The notes: generated from the sequence alone by a model not told the origin. A DNA stretch of 64,000 bases from Minisyncoccia bacterium (GCA_047639165.1 JBLINH010000001.1:6054-70053), one strand, 5' to 3'; positions 10,550 to 51,656 are shown, counted from the first letter of the stretch. Program-made: numbers and translations.

Positions 10550-11503
10550 TTACTCACTCAAATAGTATTGAAATACAGCTTTGGCTAATCTATCTACATC
10601 ATCAAATCTTCCATCAATGGTTGAACCCAGTACTACTATAGCAACAGGATTGTTCAATCCAGGATTGATAACCACTGCAAGATTTCCTCCAGCAAGATCA
10701 GTATATCCAGTCTTTGATCCAACTATGTTTGGAAGACTCCCTACAATATTATTTGTGTTCGTCACTTCATACTCAAATCCATTAATGCTCGTTGTATTAA
10801 AAGTGGGCTCTACTGTCGCCTCTAGTAGGTATGGGTAGTTATTTAAAATATATTCCATAAGAATTGTCATGTCTTTTGCAGATCCTTTTGCTCCTGGAGT
10901 AGTCTCATCTACATCAAGTCCTGTTTCGTTCTTGAATCTTGTAGCACTCATACCAATTCTTTTTGCAAAGTCATTCATTTGATTAACAGAAGAATTATCG
11001 TCAGTAGGAAGTATAGACCCAATAGCTGAAGCTATGGCAGATGCCCCATCATTTGATGATGATACAAGTGTTAGATCTGTGATGTTTTTTAATTTAAATA
11101 CCTCATTGATATGGAATCCATTATCCCCTTCCATATCAAGATTCTCTTTTCTCACCACTACATCACCTTCTCTACCGAGAACTTCAATAGCAGTTAGTGC
11201 TGTCATCATTTTTGTTAGAGACGCTAATGGAATAGATTCATTAGCCTTCTTTGCGTATAGGATTTTTCCAGACTCTAGTTCTTTTACATATGCAGACATA
11301 GCTTGTATATCTATATCCTCAAAATCCTCCCCAACTTCTAGAGTGTTAACAAAACCCTCATTGATGTTATCCGGAACCTCTTTTTCATCAACCACTATTT
11401 TTGTGAGTATGAAAGCCACAATAAGTACTATAATAGGACCGATTAAGACAAAAGCAGTCATTAGAAAATCCTTATTCCTTTGTATGTTATTACTCTCCAG
11501 CAT
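10550..11503 (-). CDS. Serine-type D-Ala-D-Ala carboxypeptidase (peptidase S11, PBP5-like)
   Basis: SLTK (SxxK), SSN (SxN) and KTG motifs, with an N-terminal membrane anchor. Confidence 0.8.
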   Translation of the reverse strand: MLESNNIQRNKDFLMTAFVLIGPIIVLIVAFILTKIVVDEKEVPDNINEGFVNTLEVGEDFEDIDIQAMSAYVKELESGKILYAKKANESIPLASLTKMMTALTAIEVLGREGDVVVRKENLDMEGDNGFHINEVFKLKNITDLTLVSSSNDGASAIASAIGSILPTDDNSSVNQMNDFAKRIGMSATRFKNETGLDVDETTPGAKGSAKDMTILMEYILNNYPYLLEATVEPTFNTTSINGFEYEVTNTNNIVGSLPNIVGSKTGYTDLAGGNLAVVINPGLNNPVAIVVLGSTIDGRFDDVDRLAKAVFQYYLSE

Positions 11504-12035
11504 CTTGGTTATTTATGAAGTCATCTATATCTTTTTGAATTTGTTCGTACTCGGGCATATCTTCCTTTCTAGATATTCCAAGAAATTGAATAGTTTCAAA
11601 AGTTGGTCTATACAGGAAGGATCTGTCATCCTTTGGATCCGCCTTCTTTTCAATCAGACCCCTAATCAAGAGGGTTCTCAGTATGAACTGTGAACTTACT
11701 CCTCTTATGTAATCTACCTCACTTCGCTTCACAGGTCCACGATATACGATAATCGTCAATGTTTCAAGTGCTGCTTTTGATAATGACTTATTTAAGTCAT
11801 TTTTTCTTAGTTTTTCTATGGTCTCAGAAAGCTCATCATTTGTAACAAGAAGTACACTTCCATCTTTTTCTATCACAGATAATCCTGAATTAGATAACCT
11901 TTCTTTTAGGTCCACTATCCCCTTTCTCGTTTCTTCTACTGAAATATCGAGGATAGTAGAAAGATTCGTTATCTTTACAGGTTCTCCTTTGTAAAAGAGT
12001 ACCGCTTCTATTTTTTTATCAAGTGATGTTTCCAT
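11490..12035 (-). CDS. scpB: Segregation and condensation protein B
   Basis: Winged-helix ScpB signature ETLTIIVYRGPVKRSEVDYIRGV. Confidence 0.85.
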   Translation of the reverse strand: METSLDKKIEAVLFYKGEPVKITNLSTILDISVEETRKGIVDLKERLSNSGLSVIEKDGSVLLVTNDELSETIEKLRKNDLNKSLSKAALETLTIIVYRGPVKRSEVDYIRGVSSQFILRTLLIRGLIEKKADPKDDRSFLYRPTFETIQFLGISRKEDMPEYEQIQKDIDDFINNQDAGE

Positions 12036-12776
12036 TTATGAGTAGTTAGGAGTTGTTACTTCTGTTGTTTCCATTTGTATGTCCGCGTAGTCGGAATGTT
12101 GATTAACATTTATGATTCCTTGTTTTACAAGTTCGAGCATAGCTAGAAAACTAATGATAACATTTACTCTTTCTTCTTTGCTCATCTCTTTTCCAGATCC
12201 TGAGAATTCTCTGAAAGTCATTTGTAAACCATTTCGTATTCTTTTGCTTAGATTCTCGATAACGTCATTGAGACTCAGTACTTTTTGTACTGCAACTTCT
12301 TGAAGTTTTTCAACTTTAGGAAATAGGTTTATAACTACCCTGACCAGTGTTCCTAAGTTAGTTTTAGATATCTGATCGTCTGGAACAAACATAGGTTCAG
12401 TGTTTTTGTAACCACCTCCAGTGAATGAAATATTTTTTCCAAACATTTCACTTGTATGAACCGATACTTCTTGTAGCCTCTTGTATATTTTTAGTCTTGT
12501 TTCTAGGTCCTCGATACTCTGTTCCTCATCTTCCGTTAGTTCAATTGATGGTAACAGTGATTTGGACTTTATCAGTAATAGCGTTGAAGCTGTAAGGATG
12601 AAGTGTGAGGTTTTCTTCAAAGAGACTTTATCCAAGTCATTTATGTAGTTTATATAGTCATCGGTAACTTGAGAAAGAGATATGTCATTGATTAAGAGTT
12701 TCCTCTTTTCAATCAAAGACAGAAGAAGGTCCATAGGACCTTCAAATACTTCGGTTTTTATCTCAAACCCTGTCAT
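12036..12776 (-). CDS. scpA: Segregation and condensation protein A
   Basis: ScpA N-terminus FEGPMDLLLSLIEKRKLLINDISLSQVTDDY. Lies directly upstream of scpB. Confidence 0.85.
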   Translation of the reverse strand: MTGFEIKTEVFEGPMDLLLSLIEKRKLLINDISLSQVTDDYINYINDLDKVSLKKTSHFILTASTLLLIKSKSLLPSIELTEDEEQSIEDLETRLKIYKRLQEVSVHTSEMFGKNISFTGGGYKNTEPMFVPDDQISKTNLGTLVRVVINLFPKVEKLQEVAVQKVLSLNDVIENLSKRIRNGLQMTFREFSGSGKEMSKEERVNVIISFLAMLELVKQGIINVNQHSDYADIQMETTEVTTPNYS

Positions 12777-13369
12777 TATATTTCAGCGCTAAACTTAATT
12801 TGTACCTCATTGTCAGCTAAAATTACATCTAAACCGAATGGTTCTGTATCGATGATGAAGTCAGCTGAAATAATACCCCCTTCTTGAGCTACTGGGAATG
12901 TAACTTCTTTTGGAACTCCTTTAATGGTTAGAACTCCAGTTACGTTTCCTTTTGTCTCTGAAACTCTTTCAGCTTTAGTTAGCTTGAATGTAGATTTAGG
13001 GTATTTCGCACAGTTAAAGAATATCTCTGTACACAGGTCAGTGTTTAGTTTACCTATCCCAGCATCAATTGATGAGTTATCAAATGTGATTGTTCCCCCA
13101 GTGAAATGATCTCCATTGTGTTCTATGTTTTTTATAGACATCTTATGGAAAGTACCTTCATGACTTTTTCCAGGACCGAAACCTATAAATTTGAAATCTA
13201 ATTTACTTAGATCGTAGCTTACTCCAGATTCTTCAATTACTTCCCCTTTGTTTACTTCAACATCCTTGATATCAGCTCTCTCTATATCTTTAGGTGCTCC
13301 ACTTGTGGCTAGAACTATGGCTAGTATCACCGCGATTATGAGTACTATGGTTACAATTACTTTTTTCAT
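12776..13369 (-). CDS. YceI-like family protein
   Basis: Signal peptide or anchor, about 190 aa, with a YceI-like beta-barrel sequence pattern. Confidence 0.5.
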   Translation of the reverse strand: MKKVIVTIVLIIAVILAIVLATSGAPKDIERADIKDVEVNKGEVIEESGVSYDLSKLDFKFIGFGPGKSHEGTFHKMSIKNIEHNGDHFTGGTITFDNSSIDAGIGKLNTDLCTEIFFNCAKYPKSTFKLTKAERVSETKGNVTGVLTIKGVPKEVTFPVAQEGGIISADFIIDTEPFGLDVILADNEVQIKFSAEI

Positions 13370-13522
13370 TTGATTGAAGGTTATTTGTGTAAGTTAGGGG
13401 TATTATATCATTTTTGAATATTTTACTCGAGGTTCAGTGTTTGAGTATAGATATAGATAGAAAGAGGGAGTACTTAACTAAAGATCAAACAAATAAAGAT
13501 TTTGTTAATCCGGAACCTATTA

Positions 13523-13999
13523 TTACGATTCAGTAATAACACTCCACAATCTATCAGCACATTCTCCACTAAAGTTATGATCACAGTTTTCTAGTATCAC
13601 TAATTCCCCACCAACTTTAGTATTTAATTCTTCAGATATTTTATATCCACCATTACGAGCTCCAACAATTAAGATATTTTTTATATCTTTAACTTTCTCA
13701 CTTAAATCAGGAAGTGAATTAAGTTTGTCAGATAGAAACTCGGGATGTCGTGATGGTTCCAGAAAAATAGATCTTTTAACACTACTGTCTATACAGTGCG
13801 CTCCCAAACTATGAGATATTACAAGATCATATTGTTCAAGGTTTTTTATATTAAAATCTTCTTCGGAAACATCTTTTTTATCAAAAGGGAAAATACCTTC
13901 AATTAAGCCACCTTTTTCTTTGTACGAATTAGACAAGAAGATGAATAGATCATCATCTGCGGTTTCTTGTAATCCTCCTATGTATAGAGTTTTATTCAT
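13523..13999 (-). CDS. YdeN/RBBP9-like serine hydrolase (alpha/beta fold)
   Basis: DLVISHSLGAHCI matches the YdeN LVAHSLGC nucleophile elbow, and there is a C-terminal His region. Confidence 0.5.
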   Translation of the reverse strand: MNKTLYIGGLQETADDDLFIFLSNSYKEKGGLIEGIFPFDKKDVSEEDFNIKNLEQYDLVISHSLGAHCIDSSVKRSIFLEPSRHPEFLSDKLNSLPDLSEKVKDIKNILIVGARNGGYKISEELNTKVGGELVILENCDHNFSGECADRLWSVITES

Positions 14000-14880
14000 T
14001 TGGAAGTAATTATCAAAGCTTGGGATGCCTCTCCTTTTTTGTGAATAGTTAAATAATCAAAATGCTCTTGATTTATTTCCATTAACCAATACTCTTCTAA
14101 CGGCCAATAGAAACCAGCCTGTTCGATTAAATTAGTATTTTTTAAAAGAGTATCAGATGTTGGTATAATAACTGGCTCATCTGATTTTTTATTTTTAAAA
14201 ATACGGTCTGCTAAAGCTGTTACTGAATTATGTGTTTTTTCAAAAGCGAACTCAACTTGTTCATATATACCATTAGAATTTCGAGCTCTCATTAATCCTC
14301 TTGACGTGTGTTGTGCGATAGAAACATATTTTTGTCCAAACTCCTCAATTAGAAATTTCCCAACATCTTTCTGTTTCTCTATAACATATTTACCAACATG
14401 CATATTGTGTGCGCTAAAGAAGTGAATAGCATCTTTGCAATAATGTTTTTTTATATTATTAAAAATAATATAACTATGACTCTTTAACATCTTTTCCTGA
14501 TCCATAGATTTTTTCTCATTTGGATTCCTAAAATCAACACCATGGATCTCAATTTGTACCCCATCGTTCATAGATAGTTTAGCGAGTGAGAGAAGAAGGT
14601 TGTAAATTTCCTGTGTTTGCCAAATTTTATACAACTTATTTAAACAGCTTTTAATATTTACTTCTATTAAAGAGTCATTGTTTTTAATCTTCTCGAGTAA
14701 CTCGTGTATTGGATCTTCGTATGCCTCAAGGTAGAAAACAATTTTTTTGTCTTTATTACTTCGTATATGATCAAGAATTAGGTTGTGTTTCCAATTACTC
14801 TCTGTAGATGACCCGTGTGAAGATTCTCCGAGCCCTATGATATTTCCTGGGTTAAATATTTTTTTTGGTAATCTAAACAT
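13996..14880 (-). CDS. Erythromycin-esterase/ChaN-like protein (Tiki/TraB superfamily)
   Basis: N-terminal IIGLGESSHGS resembles the GEATHG/GExH motif. Overlaps the downstream hydrolase gene by 4 nt. Confidence 0.4.
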   Translation of the reverse strand: MFRLPKKIFNPGNIIGLGESSHGSSTESNWKHNLILDHIRSNKDKKIVFYLEAYEDPIHELLEKIKNNDSLIEVNIKSCLNKLYKIWQTQEIYNLLLSLAKLSMNDGVQIEIHGVDFRNPNEKKSMDQEKMLKSHSYIIFNNIKKHYCKDAIHFFSAHNMHVGKYVIEKQKDVGKFLIEEFGQKYVSIAQHTSRGLMRARNSNGIYEQVEFAFEKTHNSVTALADRIFKNKKSDEPVIIPTSDTLLKNTNLIEQAGFYWPLEEYWLMEINQEHFDYLTIHKKGEASQALIITSK

Positions 14881-15113
14881 AAGCAGATTTTATCATAATT
14901 AATTTCCATGTATCCTGTGATATATTATCCGTATGGTCATAGACATAGAACTAACATTAAATAGGTTTGGTTTTGGAAAGATTTCGGAAAATAAGTTTCA
15001 ATTATTTTGTTTCAGATTTTCCAAATGGAATATACCAAACAAGCACTCTATTTCTTTTGAGATAAACTGGAGGACGGGAGGTAAAGCCTAAACATTCATT
15101 CTTTATCCATCCA

Positions 15114-15632
15114 CTAATTCGATACCTCTGAATTTAGTCGCGACTTAGCTTCTTTTAAAATAGCTAAATCCCTCTCAACCATAAATTGCCCTCCATAATT
15201 GTTGGTCTTAATATCAGCTACTAAGACAATGGCTTCATCCAGATCAACCCAGTGTATTTCATAACCACTTTCAATTTCAGATTCTGTGAAATTAGGTTTG
15301 TTCTTGTCTCCAACAACCTTAGCAAAAAAGTTGTGTGATTCTTGGAATAGTTCTTGCTGACCACGATATTCAATAACCATTCCTAACTCTTCACCAATTT
15401 CAATATCACATCCAATTTCCTCTTCCGCTTCTCTTTCTAAGCCTTGCTTAATAGTTTCTCCTCCTTCTACTCCACCACCCGGTAATTTATAGTAGTTATA
15501 TGTTGATACTTTAAGTAATGCAATCTTATCATCAGTATCAAATATAACTGCTCTAGCAGCGACTCGTTTACGAAATTTTGTTACCTCTAAATCTTTAATA
15601 TTTTCTGGATTTATGATTTTAAGTTCTCTCAT
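15114..15632 (-). CDS. NUDIX hydrolase
   Basis: Nudix box GGGVEGGETIKQGLEREAEEEIG. Confidence 0.85.
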   Translation of the reverse strand: MRELKIINPENIKDLEVTKFRKRVAARAVIFDTDDKIALLKVSTYNYYKLPGGGVEGGETIKQGLEREAEEEIGCDIEIGEELGMVIEYRGQQELFQESHNFFAKVVGDKNKPNFTESEIESGYEIHWVDLDEAIVLVADIKTNNYGGQFMVERDLAILKEAKSRLNSEVSN

Positions 15633-16054
15633 ATAGATTTCTTTAATTCTTCAGTAATTTGAATAAGTACTTCTTCTGAGATTTTTTCTACATTCTCTTC
15701 TCCTCTTAAGTAGTGATGTGCGAAATTTGGATCTGAAAAAGTTTTTCCAGCAACATTAACAGGATCTTCGTGTCTTGGTCTTAGATGCCAATGAACTCTT
15801 GGAGTCGGTGGATTATTCTTATATGCGTTATTCATTAAACAAGTCCAATTAAACATTGTTGCATTAAAAGTTTTTTTAAAGAGATCCTCAGTCTTTTTAA
15901 CAATTTTATAAAAATCGTCACTTTCTTCTTTAGATATTTCTGATAGATGACCGCAATCTCTTTTTAATAGGATTAATGATCTTCCTAGATATTTCTGATC
16001 CTGCATTAAATACACTTCCCAGTAGGATGTTTCAAAAATTAACTCTTTTTTCAT
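15629..16054 (-). CDS. HIT-family nucleotide hydrolase/transferase-like protein
   Basis: GRSLILLKRDCGHLSEIS...EE and RVHWHLRPR fit the HIT fold pattern with two of the three His of the triad. Overlaps the NUDIX gene by 4 nt. Confidence 0.5.
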   Translation of the reverse strand: MKKELIFETSYWEVYLMQDQKYLGRSLILLKRDCGHLSEISKEESDDFYKIVKKTEDLFKKTFNATMFNWTCLMNNAYKNNPPTPRVHWHLRPRHEDPVNVAGKTFSDPNFAHHYLRGEENVEKISEEVLIQITEELKKSI

Positions 16055-16085
16055 TTAGTGATTATAGCAGAAATAGATTTGAAGA

Positions 16086-16607
16086 TTATTTATTATATAC
16101 TTCCAATCCTCTTCGAAGAACTTCAAGCTTAAATGGCTTGTCTTCTATGTAATCAGTATATTCTTCAAGGTCAATCCACTTTATACCTGTAATATTTCCA
16201 GCTATGTCTTCTACAAAGTCTCCATCAGGGATAACTTCACAGAGATATAGTGCTCGGTAGTATGTATCACCAGTTGAAGCTTTAATTTTCTGATAAGAAA
16301 TTGGTTTCCAAGATTCAACTATACAGTTTGTTTCTTCCAGAACCTCTCTTTTTAGAGTGTCGATGATATTTTCTCCATCTTCTCGACTTCCACCGGGAAT
16401 ACTCCAAATATTCCATTTTGGATGAAAAACAACAAGTAGTTTGCCATTATGGATACATACAGCATGAGATTTTTCAATGAGATTATCTGGAATATTAGAA
16501 AAATCGTCCACATTTACATGTTTAACGTCACATCTCTCATTTTTGAATGTAATTACTTTCTTGAATAGAATTCCTTTTTTGTTCATGTGTAAAAGATAGT
16601 AACACAT
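16086..16607 (-). CDS. NUDIX hydrolase (second copy)
   Basis: Nudix box GGSREDGENIIDTLKREVLEETN. The ATG at 16586 is an alternative start. Confidence 0.8.
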   Translation of the reverse strand: MCYYLLHMNKKGILFKKVITFKNERCDVKHVNVDDFSNIPDNLIEKSHAVCIHNGKLLVVFHPKWNIWSIPGGSREDGENIIDTLKREVLEETNCIVESWKPISYQKIKASTGDTYYRALYLCEVIPDGDFVEDIAGNITGIKWIDLEEYTDYIEDKPFKLEVLRRGLEVYNK

Positions 16608-16687
16608 TCAATTTAAACCACTACTTTATTTTTTTTTGAATGACTTTTAAGAAAGAATAAAATAGATAAATTTGTTGGTTTCTTATA

Positions 16688-17487
16688 TTAAGTCAATAAT
16701 CCTAATTCTCTTAGTATTGGCTCCCAAACAAAAACATGACTTCTTCCATAAACAATAAATTGGGCATTTCTATCACTGTGTTTTTCTTTTATTTTTTTAA
16801 TAACATAAGCATCTCTAGTTATTGTTATAAATTCTGCTACATCACGAATAGGATTATCCTTATTAGTTGGATCAGCTAGTAAATATGAATTTTTAATTTC
16901 CATATCGTCTAATTTACCGTCAAAAATATTATATTTACCAAGTATTCTCTGTAAATCAGAAATATTAAAAACCATATCAGATAATGAATAACTGTTAAAT
17001 TTATCTAAGAAGTATTGAATGTATTCTGATAATTTTTTTTCTTTTATATTTTCATTAAAATATTGATACATCACATCTCCCATTTGTGACAAAAATGTTT
17101 TTTCAATTCCGTATTTTTGCACCGATTCATATAATAATTTCTTTTTAGAAGGGTCATAACATTCGATGTCAATTCCATCCCTATTAGCTATAAATGTTAA
17201 ATATCCACCTTCGCCACCTTCTTTCTGAAGTGATTCAACAATATTATTTGCAACATTTCTAAAACCACCTTCAACTACTGCTACTTTTTTTCAGAATCAT
17301 TTCTTAAAAATTTAGTCCAATGTTTATCCAGTACCTTTATCTGGTCGTCATCTAAAGAAAAAGTATGTTTCATTCCGATAATTAAAAGATTTTTGTTTTG
17401 TAATATGTACGGAGATTCACCCATGACACCCTTGTCCGAGTAACTATTATTATTTTTTAGATAATTGCGGATTTCTTCTATTTTCAT
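16688..17487 (-). pseudogene. TraB/GumN/PrgY-family protein (Tiki superfamily) disrupted by a frameshift at an A7 homopolymer
   Basis: The N-terminal ORF (to 17281) carries LLIIGMKHTF (GTxH-like). The downstream frame has no canonical start and ends in FIVYGRSHVF (GAGHL-like). The two frames meet at the T7 run 17285-17291, which is A7 in the mRNA. Confidence 0.5.
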
Positions 17488-17504
17488 AAAGTAAAGATTA
17501 GCAT

Positions 17505-17536
17505 AAAAAAGCATCGTGGCCACTACGCCACGATGC
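17505..17536 (-). terminator. Rho-independent terminator downstream of trpS
   Basis: 10-bp stem gcatcgtggc/gccacgatgc with loop cactac, followed by a T6 run on the minus strand. Confidence 0.6.
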
Positions 17537-17724
17537 TGAATATTGAAGTTTAATTTGTTCCATATTGAAGAAAGGATTTCTTATCTTCCCTATGTCCTTA
17601 AAAAAAGACTCTGCCTCTAACTTCACCTTTTCAAAGTTTTTGTCTTCCCAGTTCTCTTTTTGATCAGCTTGTTCCATAAAATAAACATTAATAAATTTAT
17701 GTATATTAGTAAAAATATTTAATT

Positions 17725-18693
17725 CTATCTAAACCCCACTTTCTCTCTAACCTCTTTCATCTTCTTTTCCAACATCTTGTTAGCCTTCTTTCCTCCATTT
17801 TTGAGTATCTTGAGTACTTTTGCAGGGTTTCGGGCAATCTTTTCTCTTCTCTCCCTTAAAGGCGATATAAAGGATATAAGGTCCTCTATAAGCATGTCCT
17901 TAGCTTCTTTGTACCCCATTCCACCTTCTCTGTATCTTTTAGCTAAATCTAGAGTTTCACTCTCGTTTAAAAGCAGTTTATGTATATTATAAATATTGTT
18001 TGTCTCTGGGTCTTTTGACTCCTCTACCCCCTTTGAATCTGTTTCGATCTTCATCACTGCAGATTTGATCTCGTCATCATCAGCAAAGAGTGGAATTGTA
18101 TTCCCATAGCTCTTACTCATCTTTTTTCCATCAATTCCTGGAACAGTTGAAACACTTTCAAGAATTAGTTCCTTTGGAAGTTTGAAAGTTTCTCCATAAA
18201 TTCTGTTGAACTTCTCGGCTATATCTCTCGCTATTTCAACGTGTTGTTTCTGGTCTTTTCCGACTGGTACTATATCAGCACCTGGAAGAAGAATGTCCGC
18301 CGCCATCAGAATTGGATAGTTGAACACTCCAACATTGATTTCTTTGTCTTTAGCCTCTGCATCCTTAAAAGCATGAGCTCTCATTAGGTACGGCATTGTT
18401 GTTAGACAGTCAAAAATCCACGCAAGCTCCGTGACTTGGGGGACATCTGATTGTTTATATATATTTACTTTCTTTGGATCAAGACCTATAGCTAGGTAGT
18501 CAATTACAAGATCAAGAGTTAGTTTCTCCATCTCCTCCTTGTTTTGAATTGATGTCAGTGAGTGAAGATTAGCTATGAATATGTTTGATGTATATTCTCC
18601 TTGTAGTCCTACGAATTGTTTCATTGCACCAAAATAGTTTCCAATATGAGGTCTTCCTGTTGGCTTTACGCCAGAGAGTAGTGTCTTTTTCAT
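17725..18693 (-). CDS. trpS: Tryptophan--tRNA ligase
   Basis: KPTGRPHIGNYFGAM (HIGH-like) and KMSKS motifs, 322 aa. Confidence 0.9.
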   Translation of the reverse strand: MKKTLLSGVKPTGRPHIGNYFGAMKQFVGLQGEYTSNIFIANLHSLTSIQNKEEMEKLTLDLVIDYLAIGLDPKKVNIYKQSDVPQVTELAWIFDCLTTMPYLMRAHAFKDAEAKDKEINVGVFNYPILMAADILLPGADIVPVGKDQKQHVEIARDIAEKFNRIYGETFKLPKELILESVSTVPGIDGKKMSKSYGNTIPLFADDDEIKSAVMKIETDSKGVEESKDPETNNIYNIHKLLLNESETLDLAKRYREGGMGYKEAKDMLIEDLISFISPLRERREKIARNPAKVLKILKNGGKKANKMLEKKMKEVREKVGFR

Positions 18694-20440: not shown

Positions 20441-21349
20441 TTAATTAAAAAGTAATAGAACACCGATGAGTATTATAATGACAGAAATTAATTTCTGTAA
20501 AAAGGATTTAATATCAAGTTTTTCTTTAAATATATTTGGCAATATTGTAGCCAAGACGAAGCTTATAAACAAAGTAAAGAAAGGCTGTAGACCACTTACT
20601 GTCTGAACCATTGCAAGAGGCGCTAGTAAAGTAGCAAAACCAAAAGTAATCATCGATACCATTGCAATAGCTTCATTTAGGGTATTGATAGAGATAGCTT
20701 TTGTTGAATTTGATTTTAGTACACTCATAAAATCTCTTCTGTAGCTATCTTTAAACAAAAATAGTGTCAATCCAACTAATAGAAAACCAATATAGTTCCA
20801 GAATACAGTTGTCCAGAAATCTATCTCAATGGCAACGAATTTGAATAGTAGATCATTGAGTGCTAACAGAAATGAAGAAACAGCCATTAATATGAGTAAC
20901 TCCTTATTTAACTTAAATGTTTTTGTGTTTAGGGATATTAAGAATGCTCCTGTCACTATAAGTAATCCAGCTATAACCTGTTGTACTGATAGTACTTCCC
21001 CAAGAACTATAAAAGCTAAAATCAATCCAAAGAATGGAGTCATCTGTATAAGCGGAGCTACCGTAGAAACCTCATTTTTTTCAAGTGACTTTAAATATGG
21101 AAGTAAAGAAAGGACAAATATTATTCCGTTTAGTATGGATATGAAAATAAAGAAACTTCCTATACTTAATATTTCATCAGCTTTAAATATAAAAATAAAG
21201 GGGGTTACTAATCCCCCAATTAACGATGAAAATATTAACAGTGCTCCATAACCACCTTCTTTAAAATATTTAGAGAGTAAAAACTTATCGATAAAATTAA
21301 TTATAGATTCTAGAAATGGAGAGATTAGGGCAATAAAAAACCAGTTCAT
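20441..21349 (-). CDS. EamA/DMT-family transporter
   Basis: A 10-TM profile with duplicated EamA-like halves. Confidence 0.6.
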   Translation of the reverse strand: MNWFFIALISPFLESIINFIDKFLLSKYFKEGGYGALLIFSSLIGGLVTPFIFIFKADEILSIGSFFIFISILNGIIFVLSLLPYLKSLEKNEVSTVAPLIQMTPFFGLILAFIVLGEVLSVQQVIAGLLIVTGAFLISLNTKTFKLNKELLILMAVSSFLLALNDLLFKFVAIEIDFWTTVFWNYIGFLLVGLTLFLFKDSYRRDFMSVLKSNSTKAISINTLNEAIAMVSMITFGFATLLAPLAMVQTVSGLQPFFTLFISFVLATILPNIFKEKLDIKSFLQKLISVIIILIGVLLLFN

Positions 21350-32529: not shown

Positions 32530-33714
32530 CTACTTAGTAGACTGATTTAAGAATGTTCCTATTAATTCCATAAATACATCATCTACTACGCCCGGATTAA
32601 CTAATATTTCATCTGAGAAAGTAGAGTGATCTAGCAGGAATACATTAGTTTTTTTGTTAATGTCTATACTATTTACACTAAATTCATTACTTTTAAGAAT
32701 ATTAGTAAATAGGTCTTTTAGATCTTTGTCAACACTAACAAAAATAACTTGAGGTAATTCTCTTTTGTTTCCAAATGTTTCAAGAATTTGTTCTAGCATG
32801 TTTAACCATTCTTTTTCTAGTTTAGGTAGTAGTTTGTTAACTTTCTTTTTACAACTAGTATCTATTTCTTTTTTAGAGATTGTTCTTATTGAAGATATGG
32901 CAGAGGCATAGTCTGTTTCACATTCTTCCATAACTTTTCTTATGAAGTAGTGTTTTCCATGAGGCATACTGACTATGTTCACTAACCTATCATTTCTGAC
33001 TAAACCAATGTCAGTAACTTCACCGCCGATATCTATAAACAAGAAATTTGGAGTATTCTTGAAAATGTTTCTCATCGCACTAAAGAAGATTAGTGGATGT
33101 GTCCTGTGGTTTATATGGTCTACTGTTTCAAAATTATGTTTTATCTTTTTTTCAACTTCGTCGATAGATTCATCTGCTACAGAACTTATGTAGAAAGAAA
33201 TATCTAAATTAGTTATTTTCTTATCGAAAGGATTGGTAAGGTTGTACCCGTTTACGTTTACATACGTAATATCTTTCTCAACTATCGTTTGGCCCTTTGT
33301 ATTACTATTTTTACTTTTCAATTCTTCCTTTACAATTTTCCTGAATATCTCCTTTGTAAATTTAAATGGTTTGTCTTTATCTATATAAACATCTTTAGTA
33401 TGTGATACATACCAAGGAGAAGAATATACAACGTATATATCTTTTACTTTACTAAGAACATCATCGATCTTGGTTTCAGGAAGACCTGTTTCTTTGATAT
33501 CTAAAATTACTTTGTCTAATGTTTTCAAAAGAGTTGTAACAAAAGATGATGAAGTCTGTGAATCTTTAAAATATTCAAATATTCTAGTGGTATAAAGAAT
33601 TGTTGGTATTTCACCTGACATATCAATAATACTCCCTCCGATACTAGAACTTCTAATATCGAAAACTATAGATAAAGTTTTATCCTTTCCTTTTTTACTA
33701 AAAAGAGATGACAT
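32530..33714 (-). CDS. Actin-fold ATPase of the FtsA/PilM family
   Basis: N-terminal LSIVFDIRSSSIGGSII and FIDIGGEVTDIGLV are phosphate-binding motifs of FtsA/PilM/MreB-type ASKHA ATPases. Confidence 0.55.
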   Translation of the reverse strand: MSSLFSKKGKDKTLSIVFDIRSSSIGGSIIDMSGEIPTILYTTRIFEYFKDSQTSSSFVTTLLKTLDKVILDIKETGLPETKIDDVLSKVKDIYVVYSSPWYVSHTKDVYIDKDKPFKFTKEIFRKIVKEELKSKNSNTKGQTIVEKDITYVNVNGYNLTNPFDKKITNLDISFYISSVADESIDEVEKKIKHNFETVDHINHRTHPLIFFSAMRNIFKNTPNFLFIDIGGEVTDIGLVRNDRLVNIVSMPHGKHYFIRKVMEECETDYASAISSIRTISKKEIDTSCKKKVNKLLPKLEKEWLNMLEQILETFGNKRELPQVIFVSVDKDLKDLFTNILKSNEFSVNSIDINKKTNVFLLDHSTFSDEILVNPGVVDDVFMELIGTFLNQSTK

Positions 33715-51581: not shown

Positions 51582-51656
51582 GGTGGACCTGACAGGATTT
51601 GAACCCGCTACCTCCTCAGTGCAAATGAGGCGCTCTACCAATTGAGCTACAGGCCC
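51582..51656 (-). tRNA. tRNA-Ala (anticodon UGC)
   Basis: The reverse complement folds as a cloverleaf. Acceptor GGGCCTG/CAGGTCC has a G3:U70 pair, the anticodon loop is TTTGCAC, the T-loop is TTCAAAT, and the discriminator is A with CC encoded. Confidence 0.85.

Follow-up and report, generated by a model that had tools for sequence, protein, structure and literature searches.

The locus considered here raises the question of whether six small genes, packed on the minus strand at positions 13523-17523 of a 64-kb stretch of a genome assembled from metagenomic data and assigned to Candidatus Paceibacteria (Patescibacteria), work together or are a gathering of unrelated genes. In what follows, the whole 64-kb stretch is termed the window, the block of six genes the islet, and the genes themselves A to F. 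A first-pass annotation had seen in the islet a dedicated module for processing small molecules. The analysis presented here instead favors, at a probability of roughly 0.62, a lineage-specific variable segment in the slot between trpS and scpA, which in relatives is mostly held by aspS; the segment would consist of independent small hydrolase units rather than the parts of one pathway. This reading builds on the families of the gene products, a frameshift in gene F, the deviant composition of the islet, its absence from the slot of relatives, and the lack of conserved neighborhoods around homologues. The islet and its flanks are made up as follows, with lengths in amino acids (aa):

17725-18693, minus strand: trpS, the far flank of the islet
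16688-17487, minus strand: gene F, TraB/PrgY/GumN-like (Tiki-fold), split by a frameshift
16086-16607, minus strand: gene E, a Nudix hydrolase of 173 aa, 31 bp upstream of D
15629-16054, minus strand: gene D, a HIT family protein of 141 aa
15114-15632, minus strand: gene C, a Nudix hydrolase of 172 aa, with a 4-nt overlap with the end of D
13996-14880, minus strand: gene B, a short erythromycin-esterase-like (Ere-like) protein of 294 aa (Tiki superfamily)
13523-13999, minus strand: gene A, an orphan of 158 aa, with a 4-nt overlap with the end of B
12776-13369, minus strand: a YceI-like gene (Pfam YceI, 75 bits) of genome-typical 35.9% GC, inside the variable trpS-scpA interval
10550-13369, minus strand: YceI/scpA/scpB/dacA, the other flank, together with the cell-wall genes

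The open reading frames (ORFs) and Pfam matches bear out the earlier placement of these minus-strand genes between the cell-wall operon and trpS, and likewise the 4-nt overlap of B with its neighbor A, which is repeated between C and D. The intergenic gaps of 80 bp between F and E, 233 bp between C and B, and 153 bp between A and the YceI gene make the block look like at least three separate transcription units. The first of these would be F, a gene for a TraB/Tiki-fold hydrolase lately inactivated when a homopolymer run lost one A; the second an E-D-C Nudix-HIT-Nudix operon, most likely serving a general "house-cleaning" hydrolysis of nucleotide derivatives, with dinucleoside polyphosphates, nucleotide adducts and damaged nucleoside triphosphates as the likely substrates; and the third a translationally coupled B-A pair, combining a short Ere-like His/Glu hydrolase with an orphan. 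These genes may have accumulated singly, either transferred horizontally from other organisms rich in AT or brought there by rearrangement. Their shared orientation, to which the first-pass annotation had drawn attention, is real and yet uninformative, as 61 of the 73 ORFs of the window lie on the minus strand.

The variability of the slot emerges from a comparison of 80 loci taken around TrpS homologues. Among 185,579 species representatives, identity to the TrpS of the window reaches 68% at best, and the top-matching records mostly bear the label Patescibacteria or Paceibacterota. In 50 of the 80 loci scpA also lies downstream, most of them continuing into scpB-dac. Their trpS-scpA intervals have a median length of 2.2 kb, the shortest being 8 bp and the longest 9.6 kb, and five of them measure a mere 8-46 bp. 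None of genes A to F occurs in the interval in any of the 50 relatives, whose TrpS proteins are at most 68% identical to that of the window, which upholds the earlier description of the block as accessory; the YceI gene is found there in one of the 50 (L036). Class II aminoacyl-tRNA synthetases, identified as aspartyl-tRNA synthetase (AspRS), account for 39 of the 144 interval ORFs across the related loci, and no aspS was found in the 64-kb window. L010 and L005 have in this slot an AspRS of the archaeal non-discriminating type, and L016 one of the bacterial type, which suggests that one type may have taken the place of the other at this site. The coordinates of these genes, in the interval that corresponds to window positions 12776-17725, are L010:11015-12304, L005:11175-12494 and L016:10947-12332. 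In three further loci (L030, L049 and L033), E-like and C-like Nudix genes adjoin the other side of trpS. The trpS-(aspS)-scpA junction can hence be seen as a flexible slot in Paceibacteria, in which accessory hydrolase genes gather and decay. A parallel might be struck with genomic islands and other flexible slots, to which the islet is similar in being deviant in composition, lineage-specific and placed at a site of variable size; unlike the classic islands, it comes with no integrase, tRNA gene or direct repeats, and its dinucleotide signature is normal.

The homologues of the islet genes do not keep the company that they keep here. Those of F are found in four contexts, with DUF2914/BipA as the neighbor in one and an alpha/beta hydrolase, an OLD-like ATPase and an RNase J-like gene in the others. 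In three contig families (L085, L086/L087 and L088) a DUF4135 gene comes after the B homologue, and in L089 DUF397 and a small hydrolase-like ORF do so. Among nine metagenomic relatives of D, with identities of 46-70%, Nudix neighbors are present in only two (L092 and L093), the E-like Nudix genes flanking the HIT gene in the former and following it in the latter. This Nudix(E-like)-HIT pairing is the sole adjacency among the islet genes that recurs. The scattering of such genes in relatives, which the first-pass annotation had itself named as speaking against its proposal, is what is seen for the homologues of B, D and F.

The composition of the islet also sets it apart. Its GC content is 30.8% against 35.2% for the window, a value that ranks at the 0.7th percentile when all 4-kb windows are compared. 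It is thereby the 4-kb segment richest in AT, and the next independent minimum in the 64 kb stands at 33.3%. Per-gene GC is 0.27-0.35 as opposed to 0.359 +/- 0.024 in the other 50 genes (Mann-Whitney p = 1e-4), each of the six consecutive genes being under the genome mean, and GC at third codon positions (GC3) is 0.22 as opposed to 0.27 (Mann-Whitney p = 6e-4), with GC lowered at all three codon positions. Codon bias (Karlin-type, relative to other genes) amounts to 0.249, compared with 0.151 +/- 0.024 and a maximum of 0.199 in contiguous control blocks. The visibly greater AT-richness claimed earlier is thus confirmed by the GC and codon-usage profile as a real but modest shift, and the composition is not uniform with that of the flanks, as GC, GC3 and codon bias all deviate. 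The dinucleotide signature distance is ordinary (55 versus 44 +/- 14.5), with 20% of the 4-kb windows deviating at least equally. The shift could equally have come about through foreign origin or through relaxed selection on weakly expressed genes, and by itself does not separate the two.

The alternative that survives best, itself unlikely, is that these are native, weakly expressed genes whose GC drifted downward through AT-biased mutation and relaxed selection on codons, with aspS having moved away by rearrangement and nothing having been inserted. The normal dinucleotide signature and the lowering of GC at all three codon positions fit such a history, as do the lack of the hallmarks of insertion, the rearrangement of the trpS-scpA interval in many relatives, and the E-like and C-like Nudix genes across trpS in the three loci named above. 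Moreover, comparably AT-rich and native-looking genes exist elsewhere in the window (20441-21349 at 30.3% GC and 32530-33714 at 29.4% GC). Against this, no other block of the window deviates as far as the islet in GC or in codon bias, at about 4 standard deviations off the control blocks, and the lowering extends over six consecutive genes; furthermore, A has no homologues and B only five, and F shares 37% identity with a protein from a contig of 50% GC and only 27% with its Paceibacteria counterpart in L009. The islet may thus stem from horizontal transfer or from rearrangement followed by AT drift.

Turning to the individual units, profile searches recover the Nudix-HIT-Nudix trio just as it had first been described, with Pfam NUDIX matches for C (59 bits) and E (47 bits) and a HIT match for D (29 bits vs a cut-off of 21.5). 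C and E, with 26% identity to each other, share the fold signature and Nudix box of the MutT/RppH-like Nudix hydrolases. Measured against the consensus GX5EX7REUXEEXGU, the box is complete in C (GGVEGGETIKQGLEREAEEEIGC), and also in E save for the replacement of the final Gly by Asn. The best PDB match of C is a MutT/nudix family protein (2azw). D shares with the Hint/Fhit-like HIT proteins the fold signature and the second, nucleophilic, and third His of the HxHxH triad, and differs in its motif RVHWHLRPR by an Arg in place of the first His, a residue that is kept in some of its relatives (L095); it also has a conserved DPNFAHHY. Its best PDB match is 2oik (E = 9e-4), in which PHVHWHVIPR aligns with PRVHWHLRPR. 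None of the three reaches an NCBIfam equivalog cut-off, the Nudix matches of C and E falling far below.

A tight Nudix-HIT-Nudix trio with spacers of 3-4 bp, homologous to E-D, is present on a groundwater contig (L092:40-1495); both of its Nudix genes are E-like and paralogous to each other, and in L093 E-like Nudix fragments come after the HIT gene. This Nudix-HIT pair recurring in candidate-phyla organisms is one by-product of the analysis. An ORF of 281 aa at L094:6055-6900 on the minus strand, which starts MSANIYLIGTCH...IILEQSDD, is located downstream of a D-type HIT homologue at a distance of two genes. Its LIGTCH motif gave it a by-eye likeness to a TraB/Tiki N-terminus, and this candidate was rejected, as neither Pfam nor the profile of the F family matches it. 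C and E also match a candidate defense model of PADLOC, PDC-S07 (E = 5e-10 and 3e-7), which probably reflects generic Nudix similarity and not membership in a defense system. A defense or phage origin of the islet was likewise rejected, PHROGs and PADLOC giving only generic Nudix matches.

B contains the motif GESSHG, and its earlier description as Ere-like is sustained by Pfam PF05139 (Erythro_esteras; 28.5 bits vs a cut-off of 26.4, the match being limited to the 77 residues 150-226) and by an alignment with its best PDB sequence match, the Bacillus cereus Ere-like Bcr135 (2rad/3b55; E = 0.008). In this alignment GLGEssHG of B falls on GLGEATHG, with H22 on His-85, and aHNmHV on GHNGHV; thus, B passes the gathering threshold of the Ere family (EreA/EreB/EreC, Bcr135/Bcr136) and aligns with it at both histidine motifs. 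E19, H22, E52 and H158 are invariant across the six relatives of the B group, and E52 would, to judge from spacing, be the equivalent of Glu-113 of Bcr135. By these matches B is a short member of the Ere family. The characterized Ere proteins have about 400-450 aa, whereas B belongs to a small group of ~290-aa proteins, its five homologues (289-291 aa) sharing 43-61% identity with it. The full-length architecture of at least ~400 aa is accordingly absent from B and its relatives (289-294 aa, versus 403-451 aa for 2rad and 2qgm), and nothing points to macrolide esterase activity. The idea that B and A are the halves of a split full-length Ere protein was rejected, as B by itself extends into the C-terminal portion of the Ere profile and its relatives of ~290 aa have no A partner. 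These "mini" Ere-like proteins, often beside a stand-alone DUF4135, are a further by-product. The DUF4135 gene (LanM-dehydratase-like) comes ~300 bp after the closest homologues of B, at L085:1265-2761, L086:1228-2136 and L088:1770-2417; the two may be a conserved gene pair, and no such partner for B is present within the window.

A is an orphan. It has no match in Pfam (E <= 10), NCBIfam, PDB, PHROGs or PADLOC, and a search of 5.8 billion clusters returned only itself (hypothetical protein ACI9GH_000017). NCBI enters the products as hypothetical proteins ACI9GH_000017/18 of a Candidatus Paceibacteria bacterium, on a contig of 70.7 kb. The first-pass annotation had called it a YdeN/RBBP9-like serine hydrolase, a label that finds no family, PDB or homologue match. 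Its features are an SHSLG pentapeptide (Ser63), His141 and a C-terminal ENCDHNF; by a rough estimate, a pentapeptide of the form small-x-Ser-x-small would turn up by chance in ~40% of proteins of its size. The single-sequence AlphaFold model, with a predicted local distance difference test score (pLDDT) of 36.5, is too poor for its fold to be read. Comparison with the small alpha/beta-hydrolase-like ORF near the B homologue in L089 was not significant (z = 1.2, p = 0.12), and a two-sequence profile of A with that ORF found nothing relevant in PDB.

It is in the light of these assignments that the module reading has to be weighed, namely, that the islet was acquired horizontally as one piece whose hydrolases cooperate on one class of small molecules, e.g., a nucleotide- or ester-linked antibiotic. 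Every identifiable product is predicted to hydrolyze esters, peptides or nucleotide phosphoanhydrides, the genes have a common orientation with two pairs overlapping by 4 nt, and they are both deviant in composition and absent from the syntenic slot of relatives. Resistance to peptide-nucleotide antibiotics is a known effect of HIT hydrolases (PMC7157772), which also counts in its favor. Nevertheless, this combination of genes is not seen elsewhere, the block has no transporter, regulator or biosynthetic gene, and defense-system models give no match beyond the generic Nudix similarity. The dedicated module fails on the differing and unrelated neighborhoods of the B, D and F homologues, the frameshift in F and the gaps that point to separate units, and it appears quite improbable. 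The two "divergent Tiki/TraB/Ere paralogs" of the first-pass annotation, B and F, are remote co-members of a superfamily through transitive links, as claimed, but they show no direct similarity in a profile-profile comparison of their families (hhalign probability 0.2%) and should not be taken for the outcome of a duplication.

The preferred account of a variable segment of independent units has its own difficulties. Among the islet ORFs there is no integrase or other mobility gene, no meaningful flanking direct repeats were found, and the only tRNA gene in the window is at 51582, so that nothing marks an insertion. The normal dinucleotide signature leaves a foreign origin unproven, and the closest relative available, with a TrpS only 68% identical, is too distant for the gain to be dated. 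The substrates of the islet enzymes are entirely inferred, and the single orientation and all-hydrolase makeup could reflect a shared function that the neighborhoods cannot rule out. As for the horizontal acquisition proposed at the outset, the deviance in GC and codon usage and the absence from the slot of relatives speak for it, while the lack of mobility marks and the normal dinucleotides do not.

Gene F is broken. A frameshift splits it into two ORFs, which the first-pass annotation had taken as one TraB-like gene; its motifs IIGMKH and YGRSHV are indeed present and its superfamily holds, but the two motifs lie in different reading frames. The parts are:

17281-17523 and 16688-17122, minus strand: the gene-called ORFs
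17487-17284, minus strand: the N-terminal part of F, 68 codons
17284-16691, minus strand: the C-terminal part of F, 198 codons
17281-17292, minus strand: the frameshift site gaA_AAA_AAG_TAG, a run of seven A (A7) with a stop codon directly after it

Either a -1 shift or the restoration of an eighth A at the site yields ...SEKK|VAVVEGG... (GTA GCA GTA GTT GAA GGT GGT), and an intact homologue of 271 aa (P0001, 37% identity) aligns through the junction without a break: SGKERVAVVEGG. The conceptual joined protein has 266 aa, is predicted with a pLDDT of 95 to adopt the Tiki alpha/beta fold with a core of parallel beta-sheet, and carries the 2His/2Glu residues H41, E73, E93 and H251; the frameshift interrupts this domain between the helix 48-61 and the strand 68-71. 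E73 and R225 never vary in an alignment of 142 sequences of the family, and conservation is at least 90% at G38, H41, E93, G248 and H251, a pattern in agreement with the GxxH, E, E, H (2His/2Glu) motif that defines the TIKI superfamily (PMC6254334). The joined protein has no Pfam match even at E <= 10 and does not reach the gathering score of PF01963 (TraB/PrgY/GumN), with which it shares these residues and the fold. Of its 142 homologues, 37 match PF01963 at E <= 0.1 (best 3.7e-6), and the L009 copy scores 17.2 bits vs the cut-off of 26.8. The assignment of F to TraB/Tiki is supported, therefore, at the level of fold and superfamily, and like the Ere assignment of B it held up under testing. 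F differs from PF01963 in belonging to a subfamily without a Pfam annotation, of ~260-270 aa and with motifs of its own (VVEGG, GEGGY, NPIRxVAE, VYGxSH). An exhaustive profile search placed this family at 592 representative clusters at 50% identity, nearly all of 255-290 aa, the window's own fragments of 144 aa and 68 aa turning up among them as P0002 and P0026. A sizeable TraB/Tiki-fold subfamily (~590 clusters at 50% identity) without a Pfam model is another by-product.

F lacks a single intact reading frame, and the frameshift is no random sequencing error, as three independent Logan assemblies, each made from another run, all show it; they are 100% identical over 4,361 bp, the A7 run included. 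F is read here as a recent pseudogene that lost one A from an A8 run. The site might alternatively be one of programmed -1 ribosomal frameshifting or transcriptional slippage, by which full-length TraB-like protein would be made at a controlled level; zero-frame A_AAA_AAG is a slippery heptamer of the classic dnaX type. The heptamer directly precedes TAG, a -1 step regains the conserved VAVVEGG strand, both halves are open, the four catalytic residues are retained, the joined model is of high predicted confidence, and the site is preserved across the assemblies. However, the likeness to the heptamer is uninformative, as the loss of one A from A8 (GAA AAA AAA GTA) yields the same heptamer and stop automatically, and there are 40 runs of at least 7 A on the coding strand of the window. 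Downstream of the site there is no stable RNA structure that might stimulate a shift (z = -0.68), the representatives of the family are almost all full length, and the homologues examined have one open frame across the site; moreover, the three assemblies, being 100% identical over 4.4 kb, evidently sampled one population. A programmed shift hence seems very improbable next to a simple loss of function. The 40 A runs on the coding (minus) strand are in themselves potential frameshift hotspots.

A more elaborate scenario is barely credible, in which the islet, beside trpS in the slot that holds aspS in relatives, would confer immunity to antibiotics that imitate aminoacyl-adenylates or have ester or peptide carriers, with the HIT phosphoramidase D and the Nudix enzymes C and E destroying the nucleotide warhead, the Tiki-fold His/Glu hydrolases B and F and the orphan A removing the ester or peptide moieties, and the expression of F being switched by slippage at A7. 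On the whole, the islet is fairly ordinary, and the family guesses of the first-pass annotation were mostly right; the novelty is confined to new members of known families, and little changes unless a shared substrate emerges.

Some features around the islet complete the picture. The spacer between trpS and F holds two:

17510-17537, minus strand: a terminator-like hairpin with an 11-bp stem including 7 G-C pairs, followed by TTTTTT
17498-17677, minus strand: a gene-finder call of 59 codons that fills the spacer

The hairpin, a strong one, probably ends the trpS transcript. The last 13 codons of the 59-codon ORF are the hairpin sequence itself, and the ORF has no homologues and no family match in Pfam, NCBIfam, PHROGs or PADLOC; it is doubtful as a real gene, as opposed to an ORF reading through the trpS terminator. 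An Rfam scan gave sub-threshold chance matches only, with no hidden RNA element. Over the entire window (1-64000), the cumulative GC skew drops almost monotonically, which fits a single replichore with strongly co-oriented genes.

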